From IMG/VR virus record IMGVR_UViG_3300031886_000005, positions 1-53,398 of that record: a DNA stretch of 53,398 nucleotides. One strand, given 5' to 3'. The position numbers were made by a program, and so were the translations under genes. Origin of the DNA: a virus (Duplodnaviria > Caudoviricetes). A model generated the notes under the pieces. The model was not told the DNA's origin and ran no database searches. It saw only the letters and a list, made by a program, of their open reading frames with translations. Of this stretch, positions 14,148-32,800 are shown piece by piece. How positions within the stretch are numbered: position 1 is the stretch's first letter; each line of letters opens with the position of its first letter.

Positions 14148-14647
14148 TCTACCTCAACTATCTCAGCGGTCTTACGGTTCGAGGGCAACGCAGCCATGAC
14201 ATTGATGTTGATCAACGGCTTGTTCGATGTCTCCTCCACCTTGTGTATCTTCCGCATCTGATCATCCAGCTTAACCCATGCCTCAATAGCCCCTCTCATC
14301 GCCTGCAGGTTCCCCTGCGTCATAGCAGACACCGCAGATTGAAACAGCGTATACAGCTTGTCACCAGTCTCCATAGACCTCTTTACATGCTCTTCCCCTG
14401 TCTTCACCACGATCTTCGATAACTCACTGTTCTGCTTCTCAGCCTGTTTCGTTATCTCAGCCGCCACAGCCTCACGAGCTTCCGATTGCAGCTTCTCTCT
14501 TTGCTGGAACCAGTTTTCCTTCGATGACCTCTTAGCTAGATAGGCATAACTCATGTCATGCTTCTTCGCTATGTCGCGTAACGATACATTGCTACGAGTG
14601 AACTCACTATGAATCTCATCCCAGTCGTATTTCTTCCTATTCGCCAT
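14144..14647 (-). CDS. Terminase small subunit-like HTH protein
   Basis: YDWDEIHSEF...SLRDIAKKH...KRSSKENW HTH, helical oligomerisation region, ININV C-terminal strand. Confidence 0.6.
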   Translation of the reverse strand: MANRKKYDWDEIHSEFTRSNVSLRDIAKKHDMSYAYLAKRSSKENWFQQREKLQSEAREAVAAEITKQAEKQNSELSKIVVKTGEEHVKRSMETGDKLYTLFQSAVSAMTQGNLQAMRGAIEAWVKLDDQMRKIHKVEETSNKPLININVMAALPSNRKTAEIVEVD

Positions 14648-14886
14648 AGGTCAACAATATAGGGAAAACCCCAAAAAATCACAAACACCATATAATATAA
14701 CGCACCCCTACCCAAAGGGGGGGTGGGCGTGGGCGCACACGCTGGTCTAATAGTTACTGGTTAGGCCAATAGCCTAACATAACAGTTGCCGTATAGTATT
14801 GGATAGGTCGAAAGGTTAATCGAACTGACTTTCTTAAGACGAGTGTCTTAAGAATACTAAACCACTAACAAAAAAGGTAAAGTAAT

Positions 14887-15447
14887 ATGAAGATCGAGAT
14901 TAACCTAGATACCGAGTCCATCAAAGCAAACAACAAAGTCAGCGCATCCAACGCAGGCTTGGCCGTTGTTCAAACCGTCGTCGTCGGCAAGCTGCTGCGC
15001 GAAAAGCTCCAAACCGAGCAAAACCGCGTTGTTAAGCAGTACGGCCTAAACGAAGGTTTGACCGTGGGTAAAAACGCGAGCGGCAAAGGCAGCTTGTGGG
15101 CGAAAGCTCGCGCTCAGCTGTCACGTGCAATCAAGGCACAGGCTGAGGGCAAGGGCGTTGGATTCTCGGATGACAAGTCCGCAGATCGCGCGGCCAATCG
15201 TGCGCTAAATGCAGCCGGGTTTATATCCCGCGAAAGCAAAGTGCAAAAAGATTGGGACAAGGCGGTTGTTGAGATGGCGATGAACAAATGCGCCACACGT
15301 GACAAGGACAACAAAATCACTGATGTTGATTTTGATGAGGTCGTCGCTTACCTAGGCGGCGAGGAGTCCGATGCGGGTAAAGCTGCAATCACGTACTTCG
15401 ATGAACTCGCAGAAAAACGGTTCGGGTTAGAGCTTGAAACAGCCTAA
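14887..15447 (+). CDS. Hypothetical early protein
   Basis: 186 aa. Preceded by a palindrome and A-rich leader with AAGG, followed by a terminator. Confidence 0.75.
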   Translation: MKIEINLDTESIKANNKVSASNAGLAVVQTVVVGKLLREKLQTEQNRVVKQYGLNEGLTVGKNASGKGSLWAKARAQLSRAIKAQAEGKGVGFSDDKSADRAANRALNAAGFISRESKVQKDWDKAVVEMAMNKCATRDKDNKITDVDFDEVVAYLGGEESDAGKAAITYFDELAEKRFGLELETA

Positions 15448-15452
15448 TTCGT

Positions 15453-15488
15453 TGGGAGGTCGCGCAAGCGGCCTCCCATTTCACTTTC
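15453..15488 (+). terminator. Intrinsic terminator
   Basis: TGGGAGGTCGC-GCAA-GCGGCCTCCCA followed by TTTCACTTTC. Confidence 0.75.
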
Positions 15489-15548
15489 AAAAAAAAAGAC
15501 TTTCTTAAGACAGCTGTCTTAAGGCTAACAACAACAAAAGGAATAGAT

Positions 15549-15698
15549 ATGAGTACAATGAAGAACGCAACCGAGAAGGAAGTCAGGGATGAGATGGCAA
15601 AATGCCTGCGAACCGCACGCAAAAGCGGGGACAAAGAGGAGCTTAAAATAGTTAGAGGATTAGTGCGGTACGTGCTGAGGATTTACACAACTTCTTAA
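15549..15698 (+). CDS. Small hypothetical protein (49 aa)
   Basis: Translated by hand (MSTMKNATEKEVRDEMAK...). AAGGA RBS, stop codon lies inside the next palindrome. Confidence 0.6.
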   Translation: MSTMKNATEKEVRDEMAKCLRTARKSGDKEELKIVRGLVRYVLRIYTTS

Positions 15699-15732
15699 GA
15701 CGAGTGTCTTAAGACTAACAATAGGAGAACAT

Positions 15733-15969
15733 ATGAAATACATCATTGATCTATACACAGGCGAGATGAGGCTAGTTGGAGATGAGGAGTTCGACAGAGT
15801 CGTTAACGGTGCGGGCGTTAACAAGGGGCGATTCCCGCTTCCGAAGCGCAAAGGTAAGCACGGCACCGTGTACGGTGGACTGGACAGCAAGACAGGCAAG
15901 CCGATTCACTTTAAGGTAGGCATTGAACTCGATCTTAAGACACCTGTCTTAAGGAAGTGTCTCAAGTAA
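15733..15969 (+). CDS. Hypothetical protein
   Basis: 78 aa with an AGGAG RBS after the palindrome. Confidence 0.65.
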   Translation: MKYIIDLYTGEMRLVGDEEFDRVVNGAGVNKGRFPLPKRKGKHGTVYGGLDSKTGKPIHFKVGIELDLKTPVLRKCLK

Positions 15970-15978
15970 TCACAATTT

Positions 15979-16089
15979 AGGGAGAGGGCCACGTGTATCG
16001 AGGCGAGAGCCTAGCCATCATCCGATTACCCTTGGATGCTGGAGTTGCGTGGTTGGTGTAGCGGGTAAGCAACACCTTCACCTCTCCCT
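15979..16089 (+). ncRNA. Multi-stem structured RNA candidate with kissing loops
   Basis: Five stems readable by eye, a GAGA tetraloop, and two complementary loops (TTACCC 16026-16031, GGGTAA 16063-16068). Confidence 0.65.
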
Positions 16090-16147
16090 TGCCAATTTCT
16101 TAAGACACCTGTCTTAAGGATGACAACAACAAACAAAAAGAAAGGCA

Positions 16148-16302
16148 TCGGTGTTAAGTATGCACACAGGAGTGTAACTGCACCGACACGACACTAGCGA
16201 ACATGGCAGACGTTGAGACTAGTGCGTGACATGTATGAACGAGCTGCCCGCACCCCGCATCAGTGGAGTGATGCCATCACAGAAACTGATGAGCCGTCGG
16301 GG
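16148..16302 (+). ncRNA. Three-hairpin non-coding segment between two palindromes
   Basis: Stems at 16148-16186, 16187-16228 and 16253-16302. No convincing plus-strand ORF. Confidence 0.4.
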
Positions 16303-16359
16303 ACTATTTCTTAAGACGAGTGTCTTAAGGCAACAACAACAACAAACATAGGAGAGCAT

Positions 16360-16509
16360 ATGAAATACATAAGAATGGCGTGCCAAAACACGCTTGTATA
16401 TACCACGTGGCAATGGAGCTGGAGATACATGGAATGGCAAAGGCTGTCCATATCTCACACAGTATGGGATGCCACACGCAACCCGCTCAAAGTATGGAGG
16501 CAGCGATGA
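16360..16509 (+). CDS. Small Trp-rich hypothetical protein (49 aa)
   Basis: AGGAG RBS after palindrome and CAA-rich leader. ATGA overlap with the next gene. Confidence 0.5.
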   Translation: MKYIRMACQNTLVYTTWQWSWRYMEWQRLSISHTVWDATRNPLKVWRQR

Positions 16510-17006
16510 ACATTAGACTGAGGAATGATCGTGGTGTAATACACCGTGACCTTAAGACGGCTGTCTTAATACTGTGCACACTGGCACTGGCAGCAGTATC
16601 ACAGGCACAGGCACTGACAGAGGAGCAGGCCATAGTGGCTAAGACTCTGCTAGGTGAGGCACGTGGCGAAGGCTACGCAGGTATGTATGCAGTCGGCTGT
16701 GTCATAGCAGCTCGCAGCATAGGTAAGAAACCTAAAGACATATGTCTTAAGAACAACGGGAAAGTGTGGCAATTTTCCTGTTGGAATCCAGCTGATCCAA
16801 ACTTCAAACAACTTCACATTCTACTCAAGACACACCCACTAGCACGCAAGGCGAAGCTGATCGCAGTACATTTGCACGCACTAGACAGGTCATATGTCGG
16901 GCACGCAGATCACTATGCACATGAGAGTGTAGATAATTACTGGACTCGCAAGCTCAAGCACGTGGGGACAGTAGGCAACCATAAGTTCTATCGAAAGGAT
17001 AAGTGA
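16506..17006 (+). CDS. Cell wall hydrolase, SleB/Hydrolase_2 family, with signal peptide
   Basis: AKTLLGEARGEG...AVGCVI...QFSCWN...ADHY...VGNHKFY. Signal peptide ends SQAQA. Start placed at the ATGA overlap. Confidence 0.88.
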   Translation: MNIRLRNDRGVIHRDLKTAVLILCTLALAAVSQAQALTEEQAIVAKTLLGEARGEGYAGMYAVGCVIAARSIGKKPKDICLKNNGKVWQFSCWNPADPNFKQLHILLKTHPLARKAKLIAVHLHALDRSYVGHADHYAHESVDNYWTRKLKHVGTVGNHKFYRKDK

Positions 17007-17254
17007 TGATAGTAGAAATAAGAATACAACTAGGAAGCATGGAACCAACCGAGGAAAACATTAGGCAGTCATTCGACAAGCTCATGGCTGCTATGTGGCT
17101 GAATAAAGTGCGTAAAGGCGGGGACTTCTGCCGAGTGATAGACGGTGAGCTTAACGATGAGGCCACGCTTGAGCTGAGGGTGGGTGCACATGCTCGTCAA
17201 GAATTTCTTAAGACGGGTGTCTTAAGGGAACAACAACGAAATAAGGAGATATAA
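17003..17254 (+). CDS. Hypothetical protein
   Basis: 83 aa, coupled to the hydrolase stop. Confidence 0.55.
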   Translation: MMIVEIRIQLGSMEPTEENIRQSFDKLMAAMWLNKVRKGGDFCRVIDGELNDEATLELRVGAHARQEFLKTGVLREQQRNKEI

Positions 17255-17256
17255 AC

Positions 17257-17682
17257 ATGAATAAAGATTGGAAAACTAAATGGACTGAAGCACTGCGCTC
17301 CGGTGAATACGAACAAGCTGAAGGCAGGCTACACGTTAAGCCTGCTGGAGATGTAGTTGGAGGGCACTGTTGCCTTGGTGTTCTGACTGACGTGTACTGT
17401 AAGGAAACTGGCAGAACGTGGGAGGAAGTCCTTGGTGACCGCAGCGTGCACACCGTGGCGTATCTGCCTTACGAGGTGTCAACTGCAGTTGAGTTCACTG
17501 ATGGAGAGCTAGACCTACACGGTACGGATGGCGTTGACGTAGTCATATGCCCTGAGGCAGATGAACTGAAGGGTGCGCTTGACCACTCCACTGCTTCAGC
17601 CGTCAATGACAACTACAAAAGAGGCCATACGGGGCACGGCTCATTCAATGACATAGCAGATGCCATTGAGGAGAACCTGTAA
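17257..17682 (+). CDS. Conserved phage hypothetical protein
   Basis: WTEALRSGEYEQ...HCCLGVL...ND...SFNDIADAIE motif set. AAGGAG RBS. Confidence 0.8.
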   Translation: MNKDWKTKWTEALRSGEYEQAEGRLHVKPAGDVVGGHCCLGVLTDVYCKETGRTWEEVLGDRSVHTVAYLPYEVSTAVEFTDGELDLHGTDGVDVVICPEADELKGALDHSTASAVNDNYKRGHTGHGSFNDIADAIEENL

Positions 17683-17757
17683 TAGGTGAGTGACTTTTCT
17701 TAAGACGAGTGTCTTAAGGTAACAACAACAACAAACAAACATAGAAGGAGAATAGAT

Positions 17758-18807
17758 ATGTTAGAAACGATAGCAACTACACTGGGCGAGAAGCCTAAGA
17801 ACAGTGAGATCAAGACAGCACGTGATCTCATTAGCAACTCCAACATGAACTGGCGTACCTACTTTGAGAAGGTAGGATACTACAACAGTGACACTCATAG
17901 CACGGATCAGTGGGGCGAGACGCACCATAACGATGAGCCTTGTGGTGAGTGGCTGGAGTATGAGAGCCAGCGCATGGTGCTACGCAGTGACACACGTGTA
18001 CCGTTGGGCATGGTAGGCCCGTCATTCACGGAGATAGATAACATCGTAGCGTTTGGAATAGCAGACCCTATCATCGCTCAAGGCGGTGAGTTCATGGGGT
18101 GTGGTGAGTATGAGTACGGTGCACTGGCATGGGTGCAGGTTAAGATGCCTATTGAACCAGCAGACGTGGTCAATGGTGACACTGTCATGCCTTACCTGCT
18201 GATAGTGACCGGACACACAGGCAACCGAAGCCTCACCTATAAGATGACTACCATTAGGGTGGTGTGTAAGAACACACTATATGCTGCGCTCAGAGGGCAG
18301 ACTAAGCAGAGTGGAACCATCAGGCACAGTGGTGACACTGATGCCAAGGCTAAGGTGGCATCTGCTTTGCTTGAGAAGCACCGCATATTCTTCAACGATA
18401 CCGTTGGTATCTTTCAAAAATTCGCAACCACTACCATCAAGCAGCCAACAGTGGAGCGATACTTCAAGACCATCGCAAAGGTGGAACCCAAACACTACAA
18501 GGACGGCGTGCTGATAGGCAGGCCAGCCTCTATGTATGATAGGTACATGACTACGTACCACGGTGACAGGCATGGTGCACACATAGGCAGAGGCACACTG
18601 TGGGGTGCGTACAATGCAGTAACAGCAGTGCAAGACCACGACATGGTGGAAGAGAAGCGCAAGGTTTCTCCGACATCAACCAAGAGTGCGAAGGATCGTG
18701 CTGCGTTTCAATACTTCGAGGCTAGTCCCCGCATCAGTCAAGATGCGTTCGACCTAGCACTTGAGTTCACAGCAGGCAAGGGCGAGCTAGTCAGTGCCAA
18801 CAACTAA
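17758..18807 (+). CDS. DUF932/DUF945 family phage/plasmid protein
   Basis: LRSDT..PLGMVG, YLLIVTGHTG, TTIRVVCKNTL, IRHSG, GTLWGAYNAVT...DH. Confidence 0.88.
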   Translation: MLETIATTLGEKPKNSEIKTARDLISNSNMNWRTYFEKVGYYNSDTHSTDQWGETHHNDEPCGEWLEYESQRMVLRSDTRVPLGMVGPSFTEIDNIVAFGIADPIIAQGGEFMGCGEYEYGALAWVQVKMPIEPADVVNGDTVMPYLLIVTGHTGNRSLTYKMTTIRVVCKNTLYAALRGQTKQSGTIRHSGDTDAKAKVASALLEKHRIFFNDTVGIFQKFATTTIKQPTVERYFKTIAKVEPKHYKDGVLIGRPASMYDRYMTTYHGDRHGAHIGRGTLWGAYNAVTAVQDHDMVEEKRKVSPTSTKSAKDRAAFQYFEASPRISQDAFDLALEFTAGKGELVSANN

Positions 18808-18833
18808 TTCTTAAGACGAGTGTCTTAAGATAG

Positions 18834-18857
18834 GGGGGAGCGAGTGCTCCCCCTTTT
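18834..18857 (+). terminator. Intrinsic terminator-like hairpin upstream of the Cas7-like gene
   Basis: GGGGGAGC-GAGT-GCTCCCCC-TTTT directly after the palindrome at 18810. Confidence 0.65.
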
Positions 18858-18897
18858 CTATACTAAACAAACAAACAAACAATAGGAGAAACATATC

Positions 18898-19701
18898 ATG
18901 GCAACAGCAACTAAGAACAGTAAGAAGAATAGCACACCGGATAAACGAATCAACATCCTTAACCGCACGTGGTGGGACTTGAATGCCACTGTAGCAGGCA
19001 GGGTACGCCTCGTGCCTCGCGCTATGGATCAGAAGGTATCTGACGACATAGCTAAGAAGCAGGCTAAGGTAGCAACCAAGTCAACGAAGGACACGGCACG
19101 TGACTTCATTGATGAAGCATACAGTGGGTTGTATAGATTCGAGAAGACCATCACCGATGAGGACACTGGTGAGGAGATAACAATGGGAGCACCTTGCGAG
19201 GGTACCATCTATGGTATCAAGGCAGTGGCACTCAAGAAGGCAATCGTTCGCCCCTTCAAGACGATAGATAAATACTCAATGCAAGATGCAAAGGGTGGCT
19301 TCCATATTGAGGGAGCAGCTAAGTGTTGGAGAGGCAAGGACGACCTCATCCCTATCATCGCTGACCCAGTCAAGCAACTCAGCTACACCGAGAGGGAGGT
19401 AGCCAAGATGCTGGACATGACAACGAAGGAGATGGAAGAGGCCATGCATGAGGCGCACAAGTATGGTGCCAATATGCGTGACGATATAGTACGCATCCAA
19501 TCGGGTGCATCTATCCCTAGGTACAGGATGGAGTTCAACACATGGAAGATTCCATTTGTTGTCAGCTTCAACAAGGACTGGGTCAGTGAAGAGATACTGG
19601 TCAACGCCATTGATAGGGCGGGCATGGAGGTAGGACTCTGTGAGAATAGGCCGGAGAAATCCGGAGATAACTGGGGAACATTCCAGTTAGTAACCAAGTA
19701 A
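18898..19701 (+). CDS. Stand-alone Cas7/RAMP-like RNA-binding protein, putative effector of the adjacent GGY-NN array
   Basis: RRM-like layout: first strand DLNATVAG, YGIKAVALKKAI (cf. RAMP IPGSSLKGAL), PRYRMEFNTWKIPFVV, and C-terminal glycine-loop AGMEVGLCENRPEKSGDNWGTFQL. AGGAG RBS. Fold call is by eye. Confidence 0.65.
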   Translation: MATATKNSKKNSTPDKRINILNRTWWDLNATVAGRVRLVPRAMDQKVSDDIAKKQAKVATKSTKDTARDFIDEAYSGLYRFEKTITDEDTGEEITMGAPCEGTIYGIKAVALKKAIVRPFKTIDKYSMQDAKGGFHIEGAAKCWRGKDDLIPIIADPVKQLSYTEREVAKMLDMTTKEMEEAMHEAHKYGANMRDDIVRIQSGASIPRYRMEFNTWKIPFVVSFNKDWVSEEILVNAIDRAGMEVGLCENRPEKSGDNWGTFQLVTK

Positions 19702-19727
19702 CAACAACAATAAAGGAAACATATATT

Positions 19728-20261
19728 ATGAAGTTCGATGTAGTAAGAAGAGAGGGTCGCGGCGGTCAACGCCTCGACGAAGGCAACGCAGGTGAAATGT
19801 ACAAGAGACTAGCCGAGATGTACGAAGAGAACGGTGAGTCCCTTCGTGCAGAGGACATAGTCACTGAGGCAGAGGACAGTGATAGTCCCTTCCATGAATG
19901 GTTCGAGTGGGATGACAGCGCGGCAGCGCGTATGCACAGGCTGAAGCAGGCCCGTGATCTCATTGGATCAGTAGATATAGTTAGGAAGGACGACCCTCGT
20001 GTTGATAGTGATGGTCGTATCCGTGCATTCGTTAACATCACACGCAATGTGGTGGATGACGATGGCAACGAGTCAGTGGAGAGGACGTATGTCCCCACTG
20101 TTAGGGCGATGGAAGATGAAGAACAGCGAGAGCTAATGCTTAAGCAGGCTATGGCTGACTTCAAGAATCTCGAACGCAAGTATGGTGCACTCAATGAGTT
20201 GGCTACCATCTTCGAGACTGTCGCTGATGTGAGAGAGACGCTTATTGTGACTGTTGAATAA
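19728..20261 (+). CDS. Conserved hypothetical protein linked to the Cas7-like gene and array
   Basis: 177 aa, motif IVTEAEDSDSPFHEWFEWDDSAAARMHRLKQARDLIGSV...RAFVN...Y. Own RBS (AAAGGA). Confidence 0.8.
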   Translation: MKFDVVRREGRGGQRLDEGNAGEMYKRLAEMYEENGESLRAEDIVTEAEDSDSPFHEWFEWDDSAAARMHRLKQARDLIGSVDIVRKDDPRVDSDGRIRAFVNITRNVVDDDGNESVERTYVPTVRAMEDEEQRELMLKQAMADFKNLERKYGALNELATIFETVADVRETLIVTVE

Positions 20262-20313
20262 CGGTCACCTTCATCCCCATCTTAAGACGCTTGTCTTAAG
20301 GTGGGGCTCCTTG

Positions 20314-20959
20314 TACGTGGCGTGGCTGACATAGAGGGGAGCGGTGAGGTGGGGAGCGCAACGGTAAGGCAAGGTGGTGCAAGGCAGGGCGGTACACGGC
20401 TAGACGAGGTGAGGCGAGCTGTGACATGGCAGTGCGTGGATTGGTCGGGCGGTACATGGCAAAATCTGACGAGGACAGGCAAGGCTAGGCACGGACGGGC
20501 GTGGCGGTACATGGTATGACAAGGCAGAGCAGGACAGACCCAGTATTGGTGTGGAATGGACACGGCAAGGCAGACAAGGTTCGGAGGGGTTGGGCTCGGA
20601 ATGGCAGAGACGGGCGCGGTGAGGCGGTACAAGGTAAGGCTCGGCCGGGTCGGACATGGTTTGGAGGGGCGGTACGTGGAAAGGCGAGACCCCGTGTGGT
20701 TTGGCATGGCAAGGTATGGTTCGGCGGTACGTGGTAAGGCGAAGCGTGAACTGGCTAGGACAGGCTGGGAGAGGCGGTACATGGAGAGGTAAGGCGCGGC
20801 CCGGACAGGCGAGGTGCAGCTTGGCGTGGCGTGGCGGTACGTGGTTAGGCAAGGCTGGATTCGGACAGGCAAGGCTCGGCGGTAAACGGTTGGGCAGGGC
20901 TGGTCTCGGCCCGAAACGGTTGGGCAGGGTACATGGAATGGCGGTACAAGGTGAGGTCA
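20314..20959 (+). repeat. Non-coding pentamer-periodic (GGY-NN)n array divided by GGCGGTAC, putative guide-RNA array
   Basis: GGCGGTAC at 20388, 20448, 20503, 20623, 20668, 20723, 20773, 20833, 20940 and GGCGGTAA at 20878. Spacings are 60, 55, 120, 45, 55, 50, 60, 45 (all multiples of 5), then 62. Between them GGC/GGT/GGA/GAC triplets alternate with variable dinucleotides. Confidence 0.9.
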
Positions 20960-20987
20960 ACATAAACAACAAACAAGAAGGAGAAAT

Positions 20988-21170
20988 ATGGATAAATGGA
21001 AAGCATGGTTCAAGGTTCACAACGACCCGTTGTGGTACACATCATCAGCCCGATTCCTCACTGAGGAAGCAGCAACCGAGCACGCTCGCGGCAAGTTCAA
21101 CACATGGACTCAAGCGGATAGCTGGATAGTTGTGAAGGTTGGCTTCAACCCTAATGAGGAGGAGGTATGA
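20988..21170 (+). CDS. Hypothetical protein
   Basis: 60 aa with AAGGAG RBS after the array. Confidence 0.7.
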   Translation: MDKWKAWFKVHNDPLWYTSSARFLTEEAATEHARGKFNTWTQADSWIVVKVGFNPNEEEV

Positions 21171-21364
21171 GCAGGGTGCTACTGGGAACTGATCCAAGAC
21201 TAATCATATACCACCACCTAGATCAGTGGTGGGTATATTACAAGGTGAACGAGGGAACACTCAGCATCGATGAGTACATCTTCGACACGTTCGAGGATGT
21301 GAGCAGATGGGTAGAGAATATCTACCCCGAACTAGAAGAAGAAAGAGTAAGGAGGGCTAAATGA
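21167..21364 (+). CDS. Hypothetical protein
   Basis: 65 aa, GGAGG RBS, ATGA overlap. Confidence 0.65.
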   Translation: MSRVLLGTDPRLIIYHHLDQWWVYYKVNEGTLSIDEYIFDTFEDVSRWVENIYPELEEERVRRAK

Positions 21365-21816
21365 TACACAACCTAAAGGACTTCATGGAAGCGAGGAGCT
21401 TCGGTGAAGAATCGTTCAAGGACATCGAGCGCAACACCTACAAGTACACCGACTGTGGTGCTTGGATACAGGAGAAGACAGAGGACAGGGTTGACTATGA
21501 GTCTCCGCATATAGAGGAGTTCAACGATGCCCCAACCTACAAACATCACACCGGACTGACAGTTGGTTCCATTGTCGAAGGCGTGGACTATGACTGCGAC
21601 CCTGTCACCGTTACTTATCCGTTTGAAATGGATGAGTTTTGGAAGGCGGTGAAGGCAGTCGAAGACCAAGCCAACGAGATATGGAAGGACACCCACGGGT
21701 GCGACAAGTGCTGGAAAGAACCAGTGCCAAACCAATGGGGCGACGAGGTTGAGTTCGGTGCTTGGCCTATCAACGAAGAGTGCAAGACCTGTAAAGGGGA
21801 AGGCACAATCATATAA
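21361..21816 (+). CDS. Hypothetical protein with C-terminal CxxC pairs
   Basis: 151 aa. YKYTDCGAW, VGSIVEG, CDKC...CKTCKGEG. Confidence 0.75.
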   Translation: MIHNLKDFMEARSFGEESFKDIERNTYKYTDCGAWIQEKTEDRVDYESPHIEEFNDAPTYKHHTGLTVGSIVEGVDYDCDPVTVTYPFEMDEFWKAVKAVEDQANEIWKDTHGCDKCWKEPVPNQWGDEVEFGAWPINEECKTCKGEGTII

Positions 21817-21828
21817 AAGAAGGAGAAC

Positions 21829-22164
21829 ATGAAGAGACCTAAGAAACCGTGGAGATTTTGGCTCCACTATAACAAGCCCATGTCACGCAAGACAGAGGTG
21901 CCAGTGTGGACAATACACTGGAAGGATGTGTGCTACCAAGCATACAACATCACCGTGCGTGCATGGACTGAAACACACGAGCGCAACTCCCAACCCCACG
22001 CTGTCATACGTGGGTGGGCATGGCAGCTCGAATTGGTTGGCCCTCAACCCGAGGGATGTAACCTGTATGCACATGCATATGTGCACGCACCTACATCACA
22101 CGGGGGAGAGCTAAGAACAGAAGATTGGGACGGTGACGGTACCCCACTCTTCCATAATCCGTAA
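21829..22164 (+). CDS. Hypothetical protein
   Basis: 111 aa, AAGGAG RBS, FWLHYNKP...WTIHW...QPHAVIRG. Confidence 0.7.
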   Translation: MKRPKKPWRFWLHYNKPMSRKTEVPVWTIHWKDVCYQAYNITVRAWTETHERNSQPHAVIRGWAWQLELVGPQPEGCNLYAHAYVHAPTSHGGELRTEDWDGDGTPLFHNP

Positions 22165-22265
22165 CCTGCCGCGAAGAGCTGGAAAGGAGATTAACTAGCC
22201 CTTCTGTCGGTACACAACTACCCAAGGCAGGAGACATATAACAACACAACAAAAGGAGATAAACA

Positions 22266-22943
22266 ATGGCACATATCAAAGGAAGTTATATCCTGTGGTC
22301 TAGTCTTAAGACAGTTGTCTTAATGACTGGACTACTTCGGCCATCAATCAACTCAAAGACAGGGCCGATGCCGCAAACATGGATACTAAGAAGACGATCA
22401 CCCCCGAGCGTGAGGAACAAGGGAGCTGGGTGTAAGGGATGCCCAGCTGATCCGTTCTGTTACATTAGGTGGGAGCAGGCACCTCTCTCTGTGTATAAAG
22501 CATACAAGAGGGGAGCATACGAACCGTTTGACTTTGAATCAAACGACGTGACGCTGCTCAACGGCAAGCCAATGAGAGTTGGTTCAGCTGGTGAGCCAAC
22601 CGAGATGCCAGCCCATGCTTGGCAACCCTACTTAAAGGTAGCTGGGTCATGGACTGGGTACACACACAAGTGGGCATCAGCAGGCAACCTACCATACAGG
22701 ACATTCTGTATGGCGAGCGTGCACACTGTCCATGAGATGAAGAAAGCAAACAAGCTAGGCTACCGCACCTACCGTGTAGGCCCGGAGCCAATAACCAAAG
22801 ATGAGATCATGTGCCCTCACTACACACACGGAGTGCAGTGTGTTAACTGTAAGCTGTGCATGGGATCAGCAATAAAAGCAAAGAACATATACGCACCAGC
22901 ACATGGTGCATATAGAAATAAGGTAAAGGAGATAGGCGAATGA
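22266..22943 (+). CDS. Cys-rich phage protein (gp88-like, possible Fe-S/radical-SAM-related)
   Basis: NSKTG, CKGCP...CY, MRVGSAGEP, WTGYTHKW, MASV, CP...CVNCKLC...AHG. Confidence 0.6.
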   Translation: MAHIKGSYILWSSLKTVVLMTGLLRPSINSKTGPMPQTWILRRRSPPSVRNKGAGCKGCPADPFCYIRWEQAPLSVYKAYKRGAYEPFDFESNDVTLLNGKPMRVGSAGEPTEMPAHAWQPYLKVAGSWTGYTHKWASAGNLPYRTFCMASVHTVHEMKKANKLGYRTYRVGPEPITKDEIMCPHYTHGVQCVNCKLCMGSAIKAKNIYAPAHGAYRNKVKEIGE

Positions 22944-23528: not shown

Positions 23529-23844
23529 TACCACCTCTCGGTGCCAGCTATTAGTGGATAACTACGGGTACATACCCCAAGCTGTCCCGTTATCCGGATG
23601 GATGACAGCACTCACACCCAACAAGGCTCGGTTCTTCCACTCATTCTATGCAATGGATGGAGCACCCGACCTTGTAGGTGATGGGTTTGAGCTGGCTAAG
23701 CACCCGATGATACACGCTGCCAAGCTGGAGATGCGTGCCGACTTGAAGGACGGTGAGTGTACGATGACAACGGAAGAACTATTCAAAGCTATTGATCTGC
23801 TCGAAGGTTCGACCTTGAAATCTGACGAGCCACCTTCGACTTAA
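23488..23844 (+). CDS. Hypothetical protein (likely start ATG 23512)
   Basis: Last plus-strand ORF of the early region, converging on the giant gene. Confidence 0.5.
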   Translation: MVGISLRNMDTPSDTTSRCQLLVDNYGYIPQAVPLSGWMTALTPNKARFFHSFYAMDGAPDLVGDGFELAKHPMIHAAKLEMRADLKDGECTMTTEELFKAIDLLEGSTLKSDEPPST

Positions 23845-26800
23845 TCCTGCTGGTAACCTTATCAAGCCACCGCTCTGCGGCACGGGGCGTGGCTTTTTCT
23901 AACGCATCTATGTTACCAATGATGTGCTTCTTAAGTTCTTCACCAACATTCTTTTGATACAGCCATATCTCACCAGCTGTCATGTCCCTCTTCTTAAGGT
24001 CAGCACCGACCACCTTTCTGCCAGTGTTACCTCCAGTTTGAAGGAAGGTACCCTGCCTTGCCCACTTAGCAGCAAGCAGCCACTCTCTCCTCTCGGATGG
24101 ATGAGGGTACTTCTTAAGTCCATTAGCTATATCACTCTTGCCCTCGTACCACCTGTGCCACGGTACCCTAGCTACCTCAACCTCTTCACCGAAGGCATTA
24201 AGCATCGGCCTACCCATGCGCCTGTCCGGTAGCCCCGGAATGGCAGTGAGCTGCGACACTAGGTGGGCCATGAACTGATCCTTTCCGGGCTTGTAGTATG
24301 TTGGGTCTACCCATGAATCAACCTCCCGCATCAAGGTGGGTGACACTATCGGGCCAACCCATCCCTGTGCAAACTGTGACGCGATTTTCTTAGACCCCTC
24401 ATACATGTCGCCGCTCCTTGACACGGACTGCATCAGTGATACCGCCTGTGATGTCATGTCCATCTCTTGAAGGAACGCAAAGCCGCCGAGTGTCATGTTG
24501 ATAAACTTATCAGCCACCTCCTTGTCATCAAAGTCCCCCCACTTTCTGCCGTCATGCAGGTTTCCTATGCCTGCGAACCAAGCAGCGAACGGGGTGTTCT
24601 TGTAGCTGACATAGTGTTTACCAAGCCTAATTGAGTGAGGCTTAACTCCTTGAGACCTAAGCTGTCTCTGCCTAGAGATGGACAACGTCTTAAGGGAACC
24701 AATGATACTTACAGACCCTTCCTCATCATCCTTCTCGTCCTCTTCCCACAGCCATGCAAGCACAGCGATACCAAGTGCAGTAGAAGTTATTGCTTGTGCC
24801 CTTATCAAGGACTGCCTCTCCTTACTCATCACCTCAGTCTCACCGTACTCGGTTGCGCTGGTCACGTTCTTGTGCACCCCTTTACTCGGTGCGATGTCAA
24901 GACCCGAAGCCTTATACCATCTAGTGCTACGCAAATAATCAGTGACCACTGTGTTCTGTGACCTAGCAAAATTAAACAAACTAAATATAGGAATAAAGTT
25001 ACTTGCGTTGCTGACTATATTCATGGCAGCACGTGAGAACGTAAACCCTAGCGGGTACTTGAAAGGCCCAGCTTTCTGCAGCATCCTGTGCATCACACCG
25101 CCAAGACCTATAGGCTCAGCGTTCAACGCAAACACCCTCCCCATTTCCGATGCTGATTGGGTTAGGTTCTCCAGCTCATCAAGGTCAGCTTCCATTATCT
25201 CTCTAGACCTAGCCTTAACCAACGGCTCCCCTTTGTGTCTCGCTATGTCAGCGGGTGCTAGTTGATCGTTGTACTTGCTCCCGTGTATGTCTCTCACTGA
25301 TCTCTCAAGTGCCTTCTCTTGCTCTCTCTTGTCAGCCATTGCCATGCCTGAGTTGTATGCTTTCTTAAGTTTATCTGCCTCCTTAACAAGCTGAGCCTTA
25401 CGCTTTGGATTGGTCTCGGTTGCTATCTCTTGTCCGATGGCAGCGTTTCTTGTTGTTGCACCGTACACCAGCATAGCCCTGCGACCAGCGGTAGCCCCAA
25501 CATAATCAAGGCCGATGACCATGCGCCTTACGAACTTCATTATGTTTGCGTAGCTTGAGCCCCACTTCTCCTTCTGTAATGCCAGCTTCTCCAACTCAGA
25601 ACCACCATAGTAATCCGTCTGAGTATCCAGCATCTTCTTCAATCTCTCATTGGCATCAGGCAGCTTGCTTGTGTCTCCCGTTCTAAGGATGTGGGCAAGC
25701 CCATCTCCTCCCTGCCAAAGTCCCTTGATAAAGTTATTTATTATGGTCAGTGAATCCATCCTACTGGTGCCTGTGTTAAAGACGGCAACCTCAGTAGAAA
25801 GGAGAATGGTGCTCACTGCACCATGAATGACTGAGCCAGTACCTATATCAACCCATGTTCTAGTACCGGATAGAGCACCAGCAAACCACAGGTCTCTGAT
25901 TAAACTCTCAGGGTCAACAGGTGTGTTAGCCAGTACGTACTGAACCATCTCTTCCCTAACCTGAGCAGCACGCACACCCTCTAGCCCTTCTTGCTCTATC
26001 TTCTCAGCCAGCTCCATCAGCTTCCTGCTGATGTGGTCACCAAAGTATCCAGCATCAACACCGTATGCTGATGGTGCAAGGGCGTCCCATAGTGCAGTGT
26101 GTGGTAACGGAACATCCACGCCATCTATCTTCACCATCGTCTCATCCTCAAGTGACAGCACTCCGATGTCATTGGCATCAAGTAATCTTTGGGCAGAACC
26201 AAGCATGGTATCCAAGGTGACCTTCCCTCCTGTGAAGGGGGCGTGGTTCTCTTGTATGCCACGCTTGAATGAGGCCAGCCTTGACTGCTTCCATATCCTC
26301 ATCATAAGGGATGCAACCTGCTTCTCTTGCGCTGTTGTTAACGCATTGCCGATACCTGCTAAGTCTAGCTCAGCTCTAAAGTTATTTATGAAAGACTGGT
26401 CATCAATAACCTCATCGGACGCTGACCTAGCTAATGCCTTCTGAACTGCCACCAGCACAGAGTCATATGCGTTGACCTCATCCGGTGCAGTTATTAGCCC
26501 ACTATCTACCAGTGTCTTAACTGGGTTGACACCACCACCACCAACGTGGTCGTTGATTGCATTCAGTGCAGCTTCTCGCCCAGCTGTTGACATCAAGTCT
26601 TTAACCCAAGAGTGCCACTCGTGGGCAACCGTGTTGCCAAAGTCCTTAAGATGCCTGCGTCTGATGGACTCTTCATACCCATGCGAGGCATCGTGGTGGC
26701 CAAGCAGGTCGCTGTTGAGCTGCTTCATCCTCATTGATTGAGCACTGTTGGATATGATCCTACCCTTGTGTTGGCTGAACCAGTTATTGATGTCACTGAT

Positions 26801-29800
26801 GCGTGCCCTGTCTCTGTTTGTTATGTTGGGCTTTGACATCAACTCCCTCTTTATATCTATGAGCCCCCGTTGCCCGCCCATAGCAATGCTCCAGTCATCA
26901 GCTGCCCTTAAGTTCAGATCAGCCATGAACTCAGCCCTGTTCCCTCGATTACTTAACAACCCCAGCACCCGTGTGGCTCTGTCTATTGATGCACTAACAT
27001 CATTAACGGATTCTGTGGACTGTGGGTCACCCGTCTTAATGTAGTTAGATATTGAATAAACTATTCCCTCCTGCTCTTCCTTGGTTGTTGCTAGGTACGT
27101 GTTCTCACCGCTCCTTGACACCTTGGTCGGGCTATCCATGTCGTCAGTTATCATCTCGAACAGAGCCTCAACACTATCGGGTGGTGCAGCAGCAGACGGG
27201 AAGTTAGCTTCATCAAGCTCGCCCCGTCGCTTCATCTCGTTGTATCTCCACGCTATACGCAGGCTCTGACCAGTGTGTGAGCTTGATCTGAATGCCTTTC
27301 TAAACGCTGGCATGATAGTCAACTCAAGGTCTTTGCCGTTTATCTCTAGCTTCCTTGGCTTCTGCCCTTCAAGTAGATGTGATTGATACTTGTTGCCACG
27401 CTCTTGTTGACTTGCCTTAGCTTCATCAAGAAGCTCATTAAGTATAGCCAGTTGTGCCTTGTATCCCCGTGGCTTATTGCCTTCAGTTCGCTGTATTTCT
27501 CTCTCATAGTCTTGGATAAGTTCTTCACCCGCCATGAACTCTGTAGCTCTGGTGTTATGGTACGCCTGCAGCTGTGCCGCTGCCCTATCCCAGCTGACAC
27601 TCGCAAGACCATCGCCCTGCATATTATTCATCACCGCTTGCATACCGATGACCACCTCGTTAGGTGATATGCCTAGGTCAAGGTTTGCTACCTCATCAAA
27701 TGGAATGACGCCGTCTTCGTTACTCTCCATTATCATGTCAGCAACAGTGTCGGTTGCCGCTATCTGACCTAGGGTAGTGTTGTTCTCTTCAGCCTGTGAG
27801 GCACTGTCCATTCCCGGCCTCACCGAGAACTCATCACCCACTGTTACATCATCTAGCTTACCAAGATCATCCAATCGTGTGGTCTCTTCCGCTGCCTCTG
27901 TTAAGAGACCAGCCTTTATAACCTTTTCACCCGACCTCTCTGATTCCTCAACCTCTGTCTTAAAGTTGATGTCACCCAGCCGTGTCGATAGGCTCTGATA
28001 GGTGGCATCATTAGACAGGCGGTGCATTATGAGGTCGATGTTGATGTCCATCTCAGGCGACCTGTCCCTCTTTTTCTTTCGTATCTCCTTGTCGGCGGCG
28101 TGCTTATACCATTCACCCTTCAATGCGTTTGCGTTGTACTTAAAATTCTTAGTGGGGTAGACAAGTATCTTTTCGCCCACCTCTATCTTGCCAGCCCCAA
28201 GGTGTGGGTTGTTTCTCTTAAGGTCAGTCAGCTTGTTGCCAGTGTGCTTGGCTATTCCTGACAGCATCCTGCTCCAAGAATTATTTGTTTTGGCAGTAAC
28301 CACCATGACGCTACCTTCACGGCCATTGTCCCTCTCCTTCTTGAGCACGTACCAGTCAGACTGCACGCTCACTGGAACCTTCCTAGACCTGCCAACAACT
28401 TCTTCTGTGTAAGTCAGACCGGAAGGCATGGTTACCTTCCTAGTCTTACCCGCACCGGGGACGTAGACCATGCCATCAACACCATCCAGCAGCTGGCCTA
28501 AGTGGTACGCATCATCAACCATGTAGTCCCACACATAGGACATGGTGCCTGCTACGGACTTCCACTCAGTGATCCTTCTATCGCCACCAGTCTTCTCGTT
28601 CTGCATCTCAAGCCATGCCTCTTCCACTCTGTCCATGCCAGTGCCAGCCTCACTGCTTAAACCCTCTAGATACGAAGCCCTTTGAGCGAACACGTTGTTC
28701 CTTGCGACAAGTAGCTCGGCATTCTTTATGATCTGTTGTATGGCTGGGGGTATGTAATCCCAACCACCAACGTCTGCATCTTGGAGGCGGGTTAGATACG
28801 TGAGCATTTTCTTAGTGGAATACTTGAGCGTCTCAAGTCCTGCCTTGTCTAGCTTTTCATGGTTACCAGCCTCTTCCAATAAGAACACTAACCATTCCTG
28901 CCCCTCCTGCGTCTTGCTCTGAACCTTTCCAAATGAAATCTTACCCTTGTAGCTCTTACCCTCCCGCTGAACATCGGGCAACCACACAAGCTGCTCCGCA
29001 AGCTCTTGCCCAAAGTTGATAGCGTAATGTGCCCTCCACTTATCAAACATATACTGACCCTCACCACGTGACATCATCAGCTCAAGAACCTCCACATTCC
29101 TCTTGGCTATGCGGCCAAAGAAAGTGTTGAGGTCAGCTGGTGTATGGTCTACAGCCTCACCCTTCTTGTTGTGCTTTACGTATCCCTTAGTTAACGCCCT
29201 GTTCATTAGAACATGATATAGCTCATGCTTAATCATCTTCTCAAGAGACTTAGGCTTTCTGCTTGTTGTCTTTCTTGTGCCGCCCTCGTAACTAACAGTC
29301 TCTTGGGGGCCAGACATATAGTAAGCCAGCTTATCAACATCAACATTGATAGTGGTGTCACCTGTGGCGGTTGAAACAAACATGGGGGCACCAGCCTTGC
29401 TTGTTCTAAATTCTATGCGGTCAACTGGCAGTCCCTCAAATGGGCCACCGTTTCTTATTAACTTAATTAGCCTGTCCTTTAACACAGCCCGAAGGCCACG
29501 TGTGCTTATTTCTGTATGGTCAGGGGCTATCTCTTCAGGCTTAGTGTGAGTGTCTTTGAACAGTCTTATTGTTTCTTGATCGAACCTCTTATCCGGGCCG
29601 ATGGTTTGTATGGTTCCCGACTGGCTTTCGTTGGCCGTACTAATCCTGTCGTTAAGTTTGTCCTCAGTTAGCTCAGGGTTAACTGGCTCCTCAGTAGACT
29701 GCAGGTCGCCACGGAAGATGGTGTCATTCTTAACTCCAGACCCTCTGTATCCGGGGCCGACATCTCTTACTAAACCCTTCAGCTGTGCTGTTACATTACT

Positions 29801-32800
29801 GAGCTGGCCTTCGAGTTCTTTTACTTTGGCATCAAGTATCCCCCTCCTAGCAACCACGTCCTCTCCACTGACTCGTTGCTTCCTGCTCCTAGCAACCTTT
29901 AGCTTGCCTAGAATCTTTTGCTTCTCCTTAGTTAGCCTTAGCTCTTCCTCAGTGTCTGCTTCAAGCTCCTCCTCTGTCCTAACAGGCTGACCCGCTCTGC
30001 CAACCGACATCTCAGCTGGCTCGAACTTTTGCAGAGCTTCCTCATGCTCCTCTGCCTGCCTCTTCTTCAGTGCCGCATCAAGCGGGCTAAGGCTGTCAGC
30101 TGTTATTAACTCTACAGCGGGTGGCCTTACCTTGGAGTGTACTTCATATTTCCTCTCCTCATTCTTGAACACCCAGTAATCTTTGCCTTCGCTCTTCTTG
30201 TTTTTCCTGTTAACCCATGACTGAGCCAGCCCTTTATTTGGCCACGGCCCTACGTTCTCCACATCCCCAGCCTCAACTGGCTCGGCGGTCTCGTTGTCCA
30301 TTATGGTGGGCTTAACCCCAGCAACAACCTTAACATCAGACACCGTGGCATCCTTGTCCTTGCTGACCGCCTGCCTTGGGGACTTGCCTGCTACCCCCAT
30401 CTTCTTGGCAACCGTCTTCGCCTTCCTAGCCTGCTTTGCCTTGGCCTGCCCTTTAGCATTCTTCTTCGCTGGCTTCTTCTTGGCTGGCTTAGCTGCCAGC
30501 TGCTTGAGCTGGGCATCCATCTGCTTACTGGTCAGCTCTTCAGTGCCTTCAATGCCCTCGTCTTGAGCTTGCTGGTCTGTTGCTTTGTAAATTCTCTTTA
30601 GGTATGGGCGAATGCTTTCACCAAAAGTGTCGAGCATTTTCTTTGACCACTTCTTGAACGAGACAATGCCCATCCTAGCATACACCACACCCAGCTTGGC
30701 ACCGTTAACGGTTAGCTTGGCTGCAGCCTCAGCGTTAACTGCCCCAACACCCATCATCGACGTTGCTGACGGGTCTATTAGGTCATCTAGATTCTTCTTT
30801 ACCTCTGCCTCTAGTGCTGCAGCTTGATCTTCTAAGCTCGCTGTTGCGGATGGCTCTTCGACAACCTCCTCCTCTGCTGCTACTGGCTCAGCCTCAACTG
30901 TTGTTTGCCCTTCCCTCCATTCTTGCCGCCGTTGCTGCTCTTCCTCTGCGGTTAAGGGCAGACCCCCTCCCGCCTCTAGCTCCTCGTTTGTGGCAGCTAT
31001 AAAATCATCCTCTTCATTCTTTTCTGCCACCACCTTCTTCGCTGCTGCCTTAGCTTTAGTAGACCTAGCTCTCTTAGCTGGCTTCTCGGCTGGTGCTGGT
31101 GCTTCCTCGGTAACTGCCTCTTCCTCAGCAGCTTGACGTTCGGCTACTTCCGCAGCTATCTCCGGTGAGAACCTAGTCTCCTGCTCTCTCCAATTCTTAG
31201 GGTCAGCCTTACCTCTGAACCTCGCAGCAAACTCTGATCTCTGTGTGGGTATCTCAGTCGCCTTGGTTCCTGTCTCTTCCGGAAGCTGTATCGCTCGTGA
31301 GAATGACTCCTCATCAAACTTCCTCAACTTACCGGGGCCACCCCTCTTGCCTTCTGCCCTAGCCTTTAGGTTAGACCACGCTGGGTGCACTGCCCCTTCC
31401 ATGAATGCCACCGCTTGGTCACGTACCATAACTGGAGACAGTATGGCCACTTCGTTGCCCTTCTTGTCTATCCCTACAACTTGATAAACCTCACCGCCCT
31501 TGTTGTCCGGTGATGGTCTCTTCCTTTTAACTGTAGCGATCTCAACAGCCTTGGTGTTCATGGCTCCAGCTATCTCATCGTCTGTCTGAGTCTCAGTTGT
31601 TGCCACCTCAAATTCATTGCGAGATTTCTGCAGCTTGACCGCTTTTACTAGCTTAGCATTGGTAACCTCCCCCTTCGTGTTGGTCTCAACAGTGCTGTGC
31701 AGCACACCCTCGGTGTCTGCTTCTTGAAGTAGCTCGATGTCCAGCTTCTCCTTGCCAGCAAAATCCATGTTGACCCAGCTGGGTTCCTCTTCTGCTGGGC
31801 CTGCGGTCTGGGTGACGCTTGTAACTACCTGCTCATTCCCTTCAGCGTCCACCCTAGTTAGTGGCACTGCACCCTCAGTAGCTGGTGCTGCCTCTGCGGC
31901 TGGTGCCACTGGTGCCACTGGTGCTGCCTCTGCGGCTGGTGCAAGGTCGAGAGTCTCGCTCACTGTCACCTTGGGTGCCTCGGCATTAACCACAGAGTCT
32001 TGTGCTTCCTGTACCCCTACGTCTGAGGCGGTGTAGTCCTTGACGGCAGCAGCCTTAAGCTCCTCCCTTATAGCACTGGCCTCTCCCTTAAGTCTTTCCG
32101 CTCCCTCCGTGTCACCTCTTGCCTGTGCTTTATCAGCTTGGGATTCTAAATTCTTAACCCTCTCTACTCGGCGTGCTCTCTTCGTGAACGCCATCGTCAC
32201 AAGGCCGAACACGCCACCAACCAATCCGCCTACTCCACCTTGGTGTACTATCCCATCAAAGAGTTGCCTGTTCTTATCGTACCCAGCTATATCGCTGGCC
32301 ACTTGGTTGAGCCACAACCCTTGTGCACTCTCCTGCGTCAGCTCAGCTGCTGCTGCTGCGGCTGTTTGGGTGGCTCCATGTATCCACTTGTTGTTGCTCG
32401 CGCTTTGGAATGCGGTGAGCCCCTTACTGAACCTGCCGTTAGAAACTTTATCCAAGTTCTTCCAAAGCTGTGTAGCTCTGCCAGTTGCAGCAGCCTGTCT
32501 AGCTAGGCTGTCTGCTCCATGCTTGGCTATGTCATCTATAGTTGAAGCACCCCTCATAGCTCTAAGCACATGAGGCGCAGCACCTATGACCTCAATCAAG
32601 CCAGCTGGTGCGTTCTTCCAGTACGCATCCCACGCCACATCCCAGTCTATGTTGTCGGGGTCTTCGCCACGCTTAATTGCGTCAGCCCTCATGGTAGCTA
32701 CAGCATCTCGCCAGCCCTCCATTGAGGAAAGCCCAACACCTCCAGCTGCGACACCTCCACGCTCACCCCATTTCCTTCCGGAAGCAGCAGCCTTCGCGCC

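Follow-up and report, generated by a model that had tools for sequence, protein, structure and literature searches.

A 111-nt element on the plus strand of the genome of an uncultured marine phage (positions 15979-16089), referred to here as RNA-A, is probably a small structured non-coding RNA gene that founds a new family and constitutes a module of its own within a variable accessory region. The window, that is, the whole stretch of DNA that was analyzed, corresponds to a complete-rated virus record of 53,398 bases that is present in sequencing runs labeled marine metagenome. Judged from its letters and those of one diverged homologue, RNA-A is a real, conserved folded RNA beyond what chance would produce, with no known family to which it belongs; the family it represents is new and previously undescribed. 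In the scheme that we propose, pairing between two loops, L4 and L5, would be the functional core of the fold. Genomic context alone leads us to suggest that RNA-A may be a trans-acting RNA that binds, or serves as a decoy for, some factor of the host or the phage, possibly in concert with a second conserved RNA (RNA-B), and that it probably exerts no control over a particular downstream gene.

A role is known for few of the small stable RNAs that phages encode, and quaternary structures of natural RNAs have been seen only recently. The small size of RNA-A makes it amenable to direct biochemistry and structure determination, its loop-loop contact is testable, and it is accompanied by a second conserved RNA and by a repeated hairpin that marks exchange points in marine phages. 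With two sequences in hand, it represents a good lead, not yet a result.

The phage itself encodes DnaB, a PD-(D/E)XK nuclease, a DUF932 protein, a cell-wall hydrolase, an integrase-like protein, a replication initiator, tail fibres and a large-terminase-like protein (phrog_2, E 6.8e-18), and RNA-A lies within a tightly packed block of genes on the same strand. No cultured phage is close: a blastn search with positions 15700-16400 returned no match, and tblastn with the terminase returned only matches below 60% identity, from phages of mixed hosts. The hairpin motif described below led to a complete relative, G001, which shows synteny with the window in the opposite orientation. Alignment of the DUF932 protein recovered only G001 among viral contigs and nothing among metagenome or genome contigs, while searches of viral contigs with the hydrolase and with a 186-aa protein recovered nothing.

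A sequence-only reading of this DNA had described five stems and the loops TTACCC and GGGTAA, and direct reading of the sequence returned every one of them at exactly the same position. The two loops are, as that reading had it, exact reverse complements (L4 at 16026-31 against L5 at 16063-68), and the element nearly fills the gap between the stop codon TAA of an open reading frame (15967-69) and the next palindrome (16099-16118). RNA-A comprises the following parts:

15979..15987, plus strand: 5' strand of P1, AGGGAGAGG, pairing with 16081-16089; purine-rich and Shine-Dalgarno-like
15988..15994, plus strand: 5' strand of P2, GCCACGT, pairing with 16047-16053, two of the pairs being G-U
15995..16000, plus strand: P2-P3 junction, GUAUCG, with the same letters in both homologues
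16001..16012, plus strand: P3 hairpin, AGGC-GAGA-GCCT, 4 bp with a GNRA loop
16015..16042, plus strand: P4 hairpin, strands 16015-25 / 16032-42, with 3 pairs, a 1x1 mismatch and 7 pairs (11 layers)
16026-16031, plus strand: L4, UUACCC, the loop of P4
16043..16046, plus strand: P4-P2 junction, AGUU, with the same letters in both homologues
16047..16053, plus strand: 3' strand of P2, GCGTGGT, pairing with 15988-15994
16055..16076, plus strand: P5 hairpin, strands 16055-62 / 16069-76, with 8 layers and 7 pairs
16063-16068, plus strand: L5, GGGUAA, the loop of P5, complementary to L4
16081..16089, plus strand: 3' strand of P1, CCTCTCCCT, pairing with 15979-15987

In this architecture, P1 closes the molecule, P2 leads into a three-way junction with P4 and the peripheral P3, and P5 stands at the base. 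The unconstrained minimum free energy (MFE) structure of the plus strand consists of the same five helices, at -52.6 kcal/mol, compared with a mean of -36.45 (sd 3.86) for shuffled sequences (z -4.18; 1 of 200 shuffles equally stable). Two random 6-nt loops were perfectly complementary in 5 of 20000 trials. The opposite strand folds more weakly (-43.3, z -2.98), and the fold contains three G-U pairs in the window copy and six in the homologue, which would be A-C mismatches on the other strand; because of these G-U pairs and the better energy of the plus strand, the fold is considered specific to that strand. The plus strand at this locus holds no open reading frame of at least 40 aa. A 22-codon frame that begins with GTG at 15992 was considered as a coding sequence and rejected, as it is broken in the homologue by a 10-nt difference in length; this lack of conservation argues against coding.

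The homologue, L068:150-270(-), was the sole match of a single-sequence covariance model of RNA-A in 72 metagenome loci (47.9 bits, E 1.6e-6, with a rough calibration of the E-value). These loci are metagenome contigs obtained from a scan for the hairpin motif, and 11 of them are relatives by blastn or tblastn. Identity between the two copies amounts to 63 of 99 ungapped columns. Covariation, a check that the sequence-only reading had itself suggested, could be examined in this pair and bore out the structure: 10 of the 37 pairs are double-changed and still paired, 19 are unchanged, 4 are changed on one side, and 4 are broken or gapped. A count by software gives 95.9% of cells across both copies as paired and likewise 10 pairs with double changes. 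When partners were slid by 1-3 columns, 0-2 double changes were counted versus the 10 observed, and the observed pairing and covariation values were reached by 1 of 500 shuffles; all of these covariation figures derive from one comparison of two independent sequences, in which the model guided the alignment (A5) and one of the two sequences supplied the structure, both of which favor the structure in the controls. A structure-blind MAFFT alignment, evaluated for P1, P2 and P4 only, gave 7 compensatory pairs out of 26, with 0-2 for slid partners. Likewise, the consensus fold energy was -41.8 compared with -12.4 (sd 3.0) for column shuffles, none of which (0 of 500) reached it, and the SCI was 0.86.

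The changes are spread over the helices. Three of the nine pairs of P1 are double-changed, with 100% of its cells paired; P2, with seven pairs, shows two compensatory changes, one one-sided change and one broken pair; two of the ten pairs of P4 are compensatory; and three of the seven pairs of P5 are double-changed. The lengths of P1, P2, P4 and P5 are kept in both copies. P3 varies in length, being longer in the homologue, where its loop is GUAGA. The GAUUACC loop context of P4 does not differ between the two homologues. The MFE structure of the homologue taken by itself differs in the interior, with an energy of -45.0 versus -40.9 for the homologous fold (a difference of 4.1 kcal/mol). The homologue also carries an additional, perfect 11-bp outer stem around the same domain, and the construct that includes this stem has a z of -6.5.

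A second model, R2, built on both sequences and run over 93 loci, retrieved the same homologue only, and with filters off on 10 related loci nothing scored below E 0.29. Model searches found no second copy in the window. In G001, the model R1 with filters off gave a best score of 13 bits (E 1.2); since this closest complete relative is without a homologue, this phage lineage can dispense with RNA-A. Pattern searches were likewise negative: a pattern of P3, L4 and L5 had 0 matches in viral contigs; a pattern of the junction and L4 had 1 viral match and 48 matches in genome contigs, none fitting the model, where by our own estimate about 50 would be expected by chance in genome contigs; and a final pattern had 1 match in viral contigs, within unrelated sequence. 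In run X9 and the RNA library X18, no contig lies over RNA-A, which carries no weight in either direction. Contigs of runs X4 and X7 that cover RNA-A are identical to the window and add zero variation. One of them, a 196-nt contig of run X7 (window 15978-16173), starts one base before RNA-A. This start may correspond to a point of variant divergence or a module boundary, contig ends being weak evidence.

RNA-A was compared with known families using Rfam, whose 4227 models presumably include pRNA. At gathering scores, there were 0 matches in the whole window. With E up to 10, only two chance matches, NEAT1_2 and 5.8S, were obtained over 15900-16360, and only one chance match was obtained on the homologous locus. 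ARAGORN identified 0 tRNA or tmRNA genes in the whole window. The family, which the sequence-only reading had not recognized, therefore has no match even at this permissive threshold. That reading is thus partly supported: a structured, non-coding RNA on the plus strand stands, and one diverged homologue keeps both the fold and the complementarity of the loops. Membership of the phi29 pRNA family itself fails, given the lack of a model match and the presence of a terminase-type packaging gene and DnaB in the phage.

In form, pRNA is one of the closest known counterparts. It is phage-encoded, with a helix of the 5' and 3' ends that closes the molecule, a multi-helix junction and two mutually complementary loops. 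RNA-A resembles it as a phage RNA of approximately 110-120 nt with a closing helix, a junction and complementary loops, but its loops can form six pairs and those of pRNA four. The phage also differs from phi29 in its 53.4-kb record, its large-terminase-like gene and its DnaB. Purine and lysine riboswitches offer a second analogy: like RNA-A, they have a helix that closes the molecule and unvarying bases at the junction, and the loops of their distal hairpins pair with each other, as those of RNA-A could; in contrast, RNA-A has no Rfam riboswitch match, no conserved downstream gene and no expression platform. A third group comprises the ornate orphan RNAs ROOL, GOLLD and OLE, of which ROOL and GOLLD have large folds with multiple pseudoknots. 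ROOL and GOLLD, as described in the available portion of one report, are phage- or prophage-encoded RNAs of unknown function in which kissing loops hold assemblies together (bioRxiv 10.1101/2024.12.08.627333). RNA-A is similarly an orphan structured RNA encoded by a phage, but GOLLD is often >800 nt according to the same portion of that report and RNA-A measures 111 nt with five helices, has no Rfam match to ROOL or GOLLD, and is not near tRNA genes, of which the window has none.

The contact between L4 and L5 deserves separate consideration. Among natural RNAs, covarying contacts between loops are mostly intramolecular, and hammerheads in nature also use a loop-loop contact. In the window, L4 and L5 can form six pairs (UUACCC/GGGUAA); in the homologue, they can form five (UACCA/UGGUA), with the C-G at 16031-16063 replaced by A-U and the other four of the five pairs unchanged. 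Random loops of the sizes found in the homologue gave five pairs in 133 of 20000 trials. This single covariation event, weak alone, is suggestive and not proof. Regarding the geometry, we lean slightly, at about even odds, toward an intramolecular kiss that would lock P4 against P5 in a compact particle. Pairing between copies, which would generate dimers or rings, is a tentative proposal, and binding of L4 and L5 to some other partner seems rather unlikely. Should the loops lock a single molecule, RNA-A would be a new compact fold, and whatever it partners with, a protein or a ligand, would suggest a new marine phage-host interaction; should they link copies, it would provide a minimal natural model for RNA self-assembly.

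The explanation that competes best with a single folded molecule is a self-associating RNA in which copies would pair through L4 on one and L5 on the next to give closed dimers or rings, much as loops interlock in phi29 pRNA or kiss in the quaternary structures of ROOL and GOLLD; we regard this possibility as real though doubtful. It would agree with the exact complementarity of the loops and with its maintenance, through a compensatory change, in the homologue. It would also relieve a geometrical difficulty: counting helical layers, P4 (11 layers), the kiss (5-6) and P5 (8) would form a stack of approximately 25 layers whose ends are tied together only by the 7-bp P2, and because of this a coaxial six-pair kiss within one molecule would need a sharp bend; no K-turn-like 3-nt bulge with tandem G-A was seen by eye in RNA-A. 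On the other side, a rectangle in which P2 and the kiss serve as crossbars could be accommodated within one molecule, more so in the homologue with its spare loop bases, and the prevalence of intramolecular contacts among natural RNAs, the small size relative to GOLLD and a phage that is not phi29-like also speak against self-association. The precedent of ROOL is in its favor, as covariation there had first suggested a tertiary contact that was later found to be quaternary, and ROOL and GOLLD are likewise phage-borne (bioRxiv 10.1101/2024.12.08.627333, in the portion available). More speculative still is the complete form of this proposal, a miniature self-assembling RNA that would build head-to-tail closed dimers or rings, a pRNA-like or ROOL-like quaternary structure, from 111 nt in a non-phi29 phage and that may act jointly with RNA-B as a two-RNA accessory module swapped between phages at the hairpins. 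Inspection by eye suggests the conserved junction GUAUCG as another possible partner for L4. Predicted duplexes between RNA-A and RNA-B were full-length and uninformative.

Returning to the preferred reading, that of an RNA gene forming its own module, its genomic setting is defined by a repeated hairpin, CTTAAGAC-N4-GTCTTAAG, which occurs in 13 copies on the plus strand between 14833 and 22324, where 0 would be expected by chance. Most copies follow the same arrangement, consisting of a short T-run, the hairpin, a CAA-rich leader, a Shine-Dalgarno sequence and a start codon. Members of this hairpin family lie 5' of nearly every gene in the 14833-22324 block. RNA-A stands alone between the copies at 15934 and 16099, which are identical 21-mers including the loop ACCT. 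The elements around RNA-A are the following:

15934..15953, plus strand: upstream boundary hairpin, CTTAAGAC-ACCT-GTCTTAAG, overlapping the last codons of the open reading frame 15733-15969
16099..16118, plus strand: downstream boundary hairpin, CTTAAGAC-ACCT-GTCTTAAG, shared by contigs of run X7 that have other flanks
16119..16309, plus strand: RNA-B cassette (core ~16187-16305), a CAA-rich leader followed by the second conserved structured RNA
16310..16329, plus strand: hairpin closing the RNA-B cassette and preceding the leader of the cell-wall hydrolase gene

RNA-B was compared with L068:283-482(-), and 8 of its 38 predicted pairs are double-changed. A contig of run X9 carries a diverged variant of 16181-16288 within RNA-B, with 17 differences and 4 gaps. 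A contig from an RNA library (X18) covers 16216-16351 and could be DNA carry-over. The hammerhead-like letters CUGAUGA...GAAA in RNA-B were considered and set aside, as they are the two strands of one covarying stem.

The content between hairpins changes from phage to phage. The window arranges these parts as hairpin, RNA-A, hairpin, RNA-B, hairpin; the contig with the homologue (L068) has hairpin, leader, RNA-B, RNA-A, hairpin and lacks a hairpin separating the two RNAs. The gene downstream also differs between the two phages. Other cassettes occupy the equivalent place in G001 and in the loci L059 and L093. In a contig of run X18, the hairpin at 16310..16329 is joined to a different downstream leader, and in contigs of other runs only the hairpin is common with the window. 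Most hairpins of G001 read CTTAAGTC-N4-GACTTAAG, with both sides of the stem changed, and 8 places in that genome lie within 2 mismatches of the motif. Copies with a 3-nt loop are present in L068 and L093, and these copies argue against a spaced double-stranded binding site and in favor of a hairpin that folds. From these arrangements we infer that the hairpins mark points of cassette exchange between related phages, and that RNA-A, bounded by two of them, was probably gained or moved by recombination there.

Several non-coding segments of the relatives were also noted. In G001, a 219-nt segment at L008:7266-7484 (-) has an 11-bp closing stem (z -2.57), and a 140-nt segment at L008:7104-7243 (-) has a strong terminator-like hairpin at its end (z -4.91); the RNA-A model fits neither segment. 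Two hairpins enclose a 199-nt non-coding cassette at L059:96-294 (-), which follows the homologue of the open reading frame 14887-15447 and is not unusually structured (z 0.07).

A related phenomenon has been described in T4-type phages, in which repeated stem-loops termed PeSLs mediate modular exchange and, in the portions of these reports that were available, are presented as composite terminator/promoter sequences (PMC2839356, PMC4122927). The hairpins flanking RNA-A resemble PeSLs, as described there, in being repeated intergenic stem-loops of a variable region, located at points of insertion, deletion or replacement between related phages: the window has 13 copies, and G001, L059, L068 and L093 hold different cassettes at one equivalent place. 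However, they differ from the PeSLs of those accounts in two respects, as a scan of 14600-17800 shows no sigma-70-type promoter with the hairpins and the T-run lies 5' of the stem, not after it; moreover, PeSL hosts are T4-type phages, to which this phage is unrelated. The promoter scan of 14600-17800 gave one sigma-70-like site, on the wrong strand, and none on the plus strand, with a consensus that may not be that of the phage. Separate terminator-like hairpins occur before or after some of the hairpin copies. For instance, at 18830-18856 (+), a terminator-like GC hairpin, GGGGGGAGCGAGTGCTCCCCC, followed by TTTT, lies directly 3' of the hairpin at 18810, and this arrangement is kept in G001. 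A literature search for the letters of the hairpin found nothing relevant among the matches listed.

This setting bears directly on a second alternative, that RNA-A is a cis-acting element of the surrounding transcript, serving as a riboswitch aptamer, as a translational operator masking the Shine-Dalgarno-like strand of P1, or as a stabilizing or processing structure. The conserved junction bases could make a ligand pocket, the same-strand gene block around RNA-A is tightly packed, and the 5' strand of P1 resembles the Shine-Dalgarno sequence of neighboring genes (TAGGAGA) and is followed by GTG. Even so, we consider this explanation improbable. Control of one gene is argued against because the neighbors of RNA-A vary and its order relative to RNA-B is swapped, and the riboswitch reading in particular is weakened because the downstream neighbor differs between the two phages. 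In addition, the boundary hairpin and a new leader intervene before the next gene, the short frame after the Shine-Dalgarno-like strand is not conserved, no Rfam riboswitch class matches at E up to 10, and no expression platform or terminator-like site is present 3' of RNA-A.

We assign a still lower probability to the idea that no functional RNA is involved, and that the element is a DNA-level site of recombination or replication or a fold that arose by chance and passed to two related phages by descent. The region is indeed prone to recombination and bounded by repeats, and the two sequences available come from related phages. Nevertheless, the excess of pairing-preserving double changes over slid controls, the strand-specific fold that results from the G-U pairs, the outer stem that the homologue adds around the same domain and the persistence of the fold between different flanks all speak against it. 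The least probable explanation, a small self-cleaving ribozyme that would process the polycistronic transcript at the cassette, could draw on the compact multi-stem fold, the invariant junction bases, the loop-loop contact and the frequency of such ribozymes in phage and metagenome settings (PMC3088659, in the part available), but RNA-A has no match to known self-cleaving classes in Rfam even at E 10 and no recognized catalytic core motif, and the suggestive letters in RNA-B belong to a covarying stem.

Other features of the window were recorded alongside this analysis. A 3232-aa open reading frame at 23789-33487 (-) has no Pfam, PHROG or PDB-sequence match, and its counterpart in G001 shares 36% identity over 2190 aa. 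With respect to the hairpins as possible promoters of an N4-like virion RNA polymerase, a regular expression for the polymerase motif B, a weak test, finds nothing in this 3232-aa protein. At the beginning of the cell-wall hydrolase gene (16360-16510, +), a Shine-Dalgarno sequence and the ATG at 16360 are out of frame with the long open reading frame (GTG 16380-17006), and both frames match G001 over the first ~33 codons; a frameshift, a short frame that overlaps or an incorrectly assigned start could account for the discrepancy. Finally, a non-coding, G-rich segment of approximately 660 nt at 20300-20960 (+) shows a 10-nt '..GG' rhythm. Within it, GGCGGTACRYGG, allowing up to 1 mismatch, occurs in 10 copies at 20388-20951, compared with 0.48 expected by chance for the whole window; judged by its letters, the segment resembles an array of iterons and may be an origin or a partition site.
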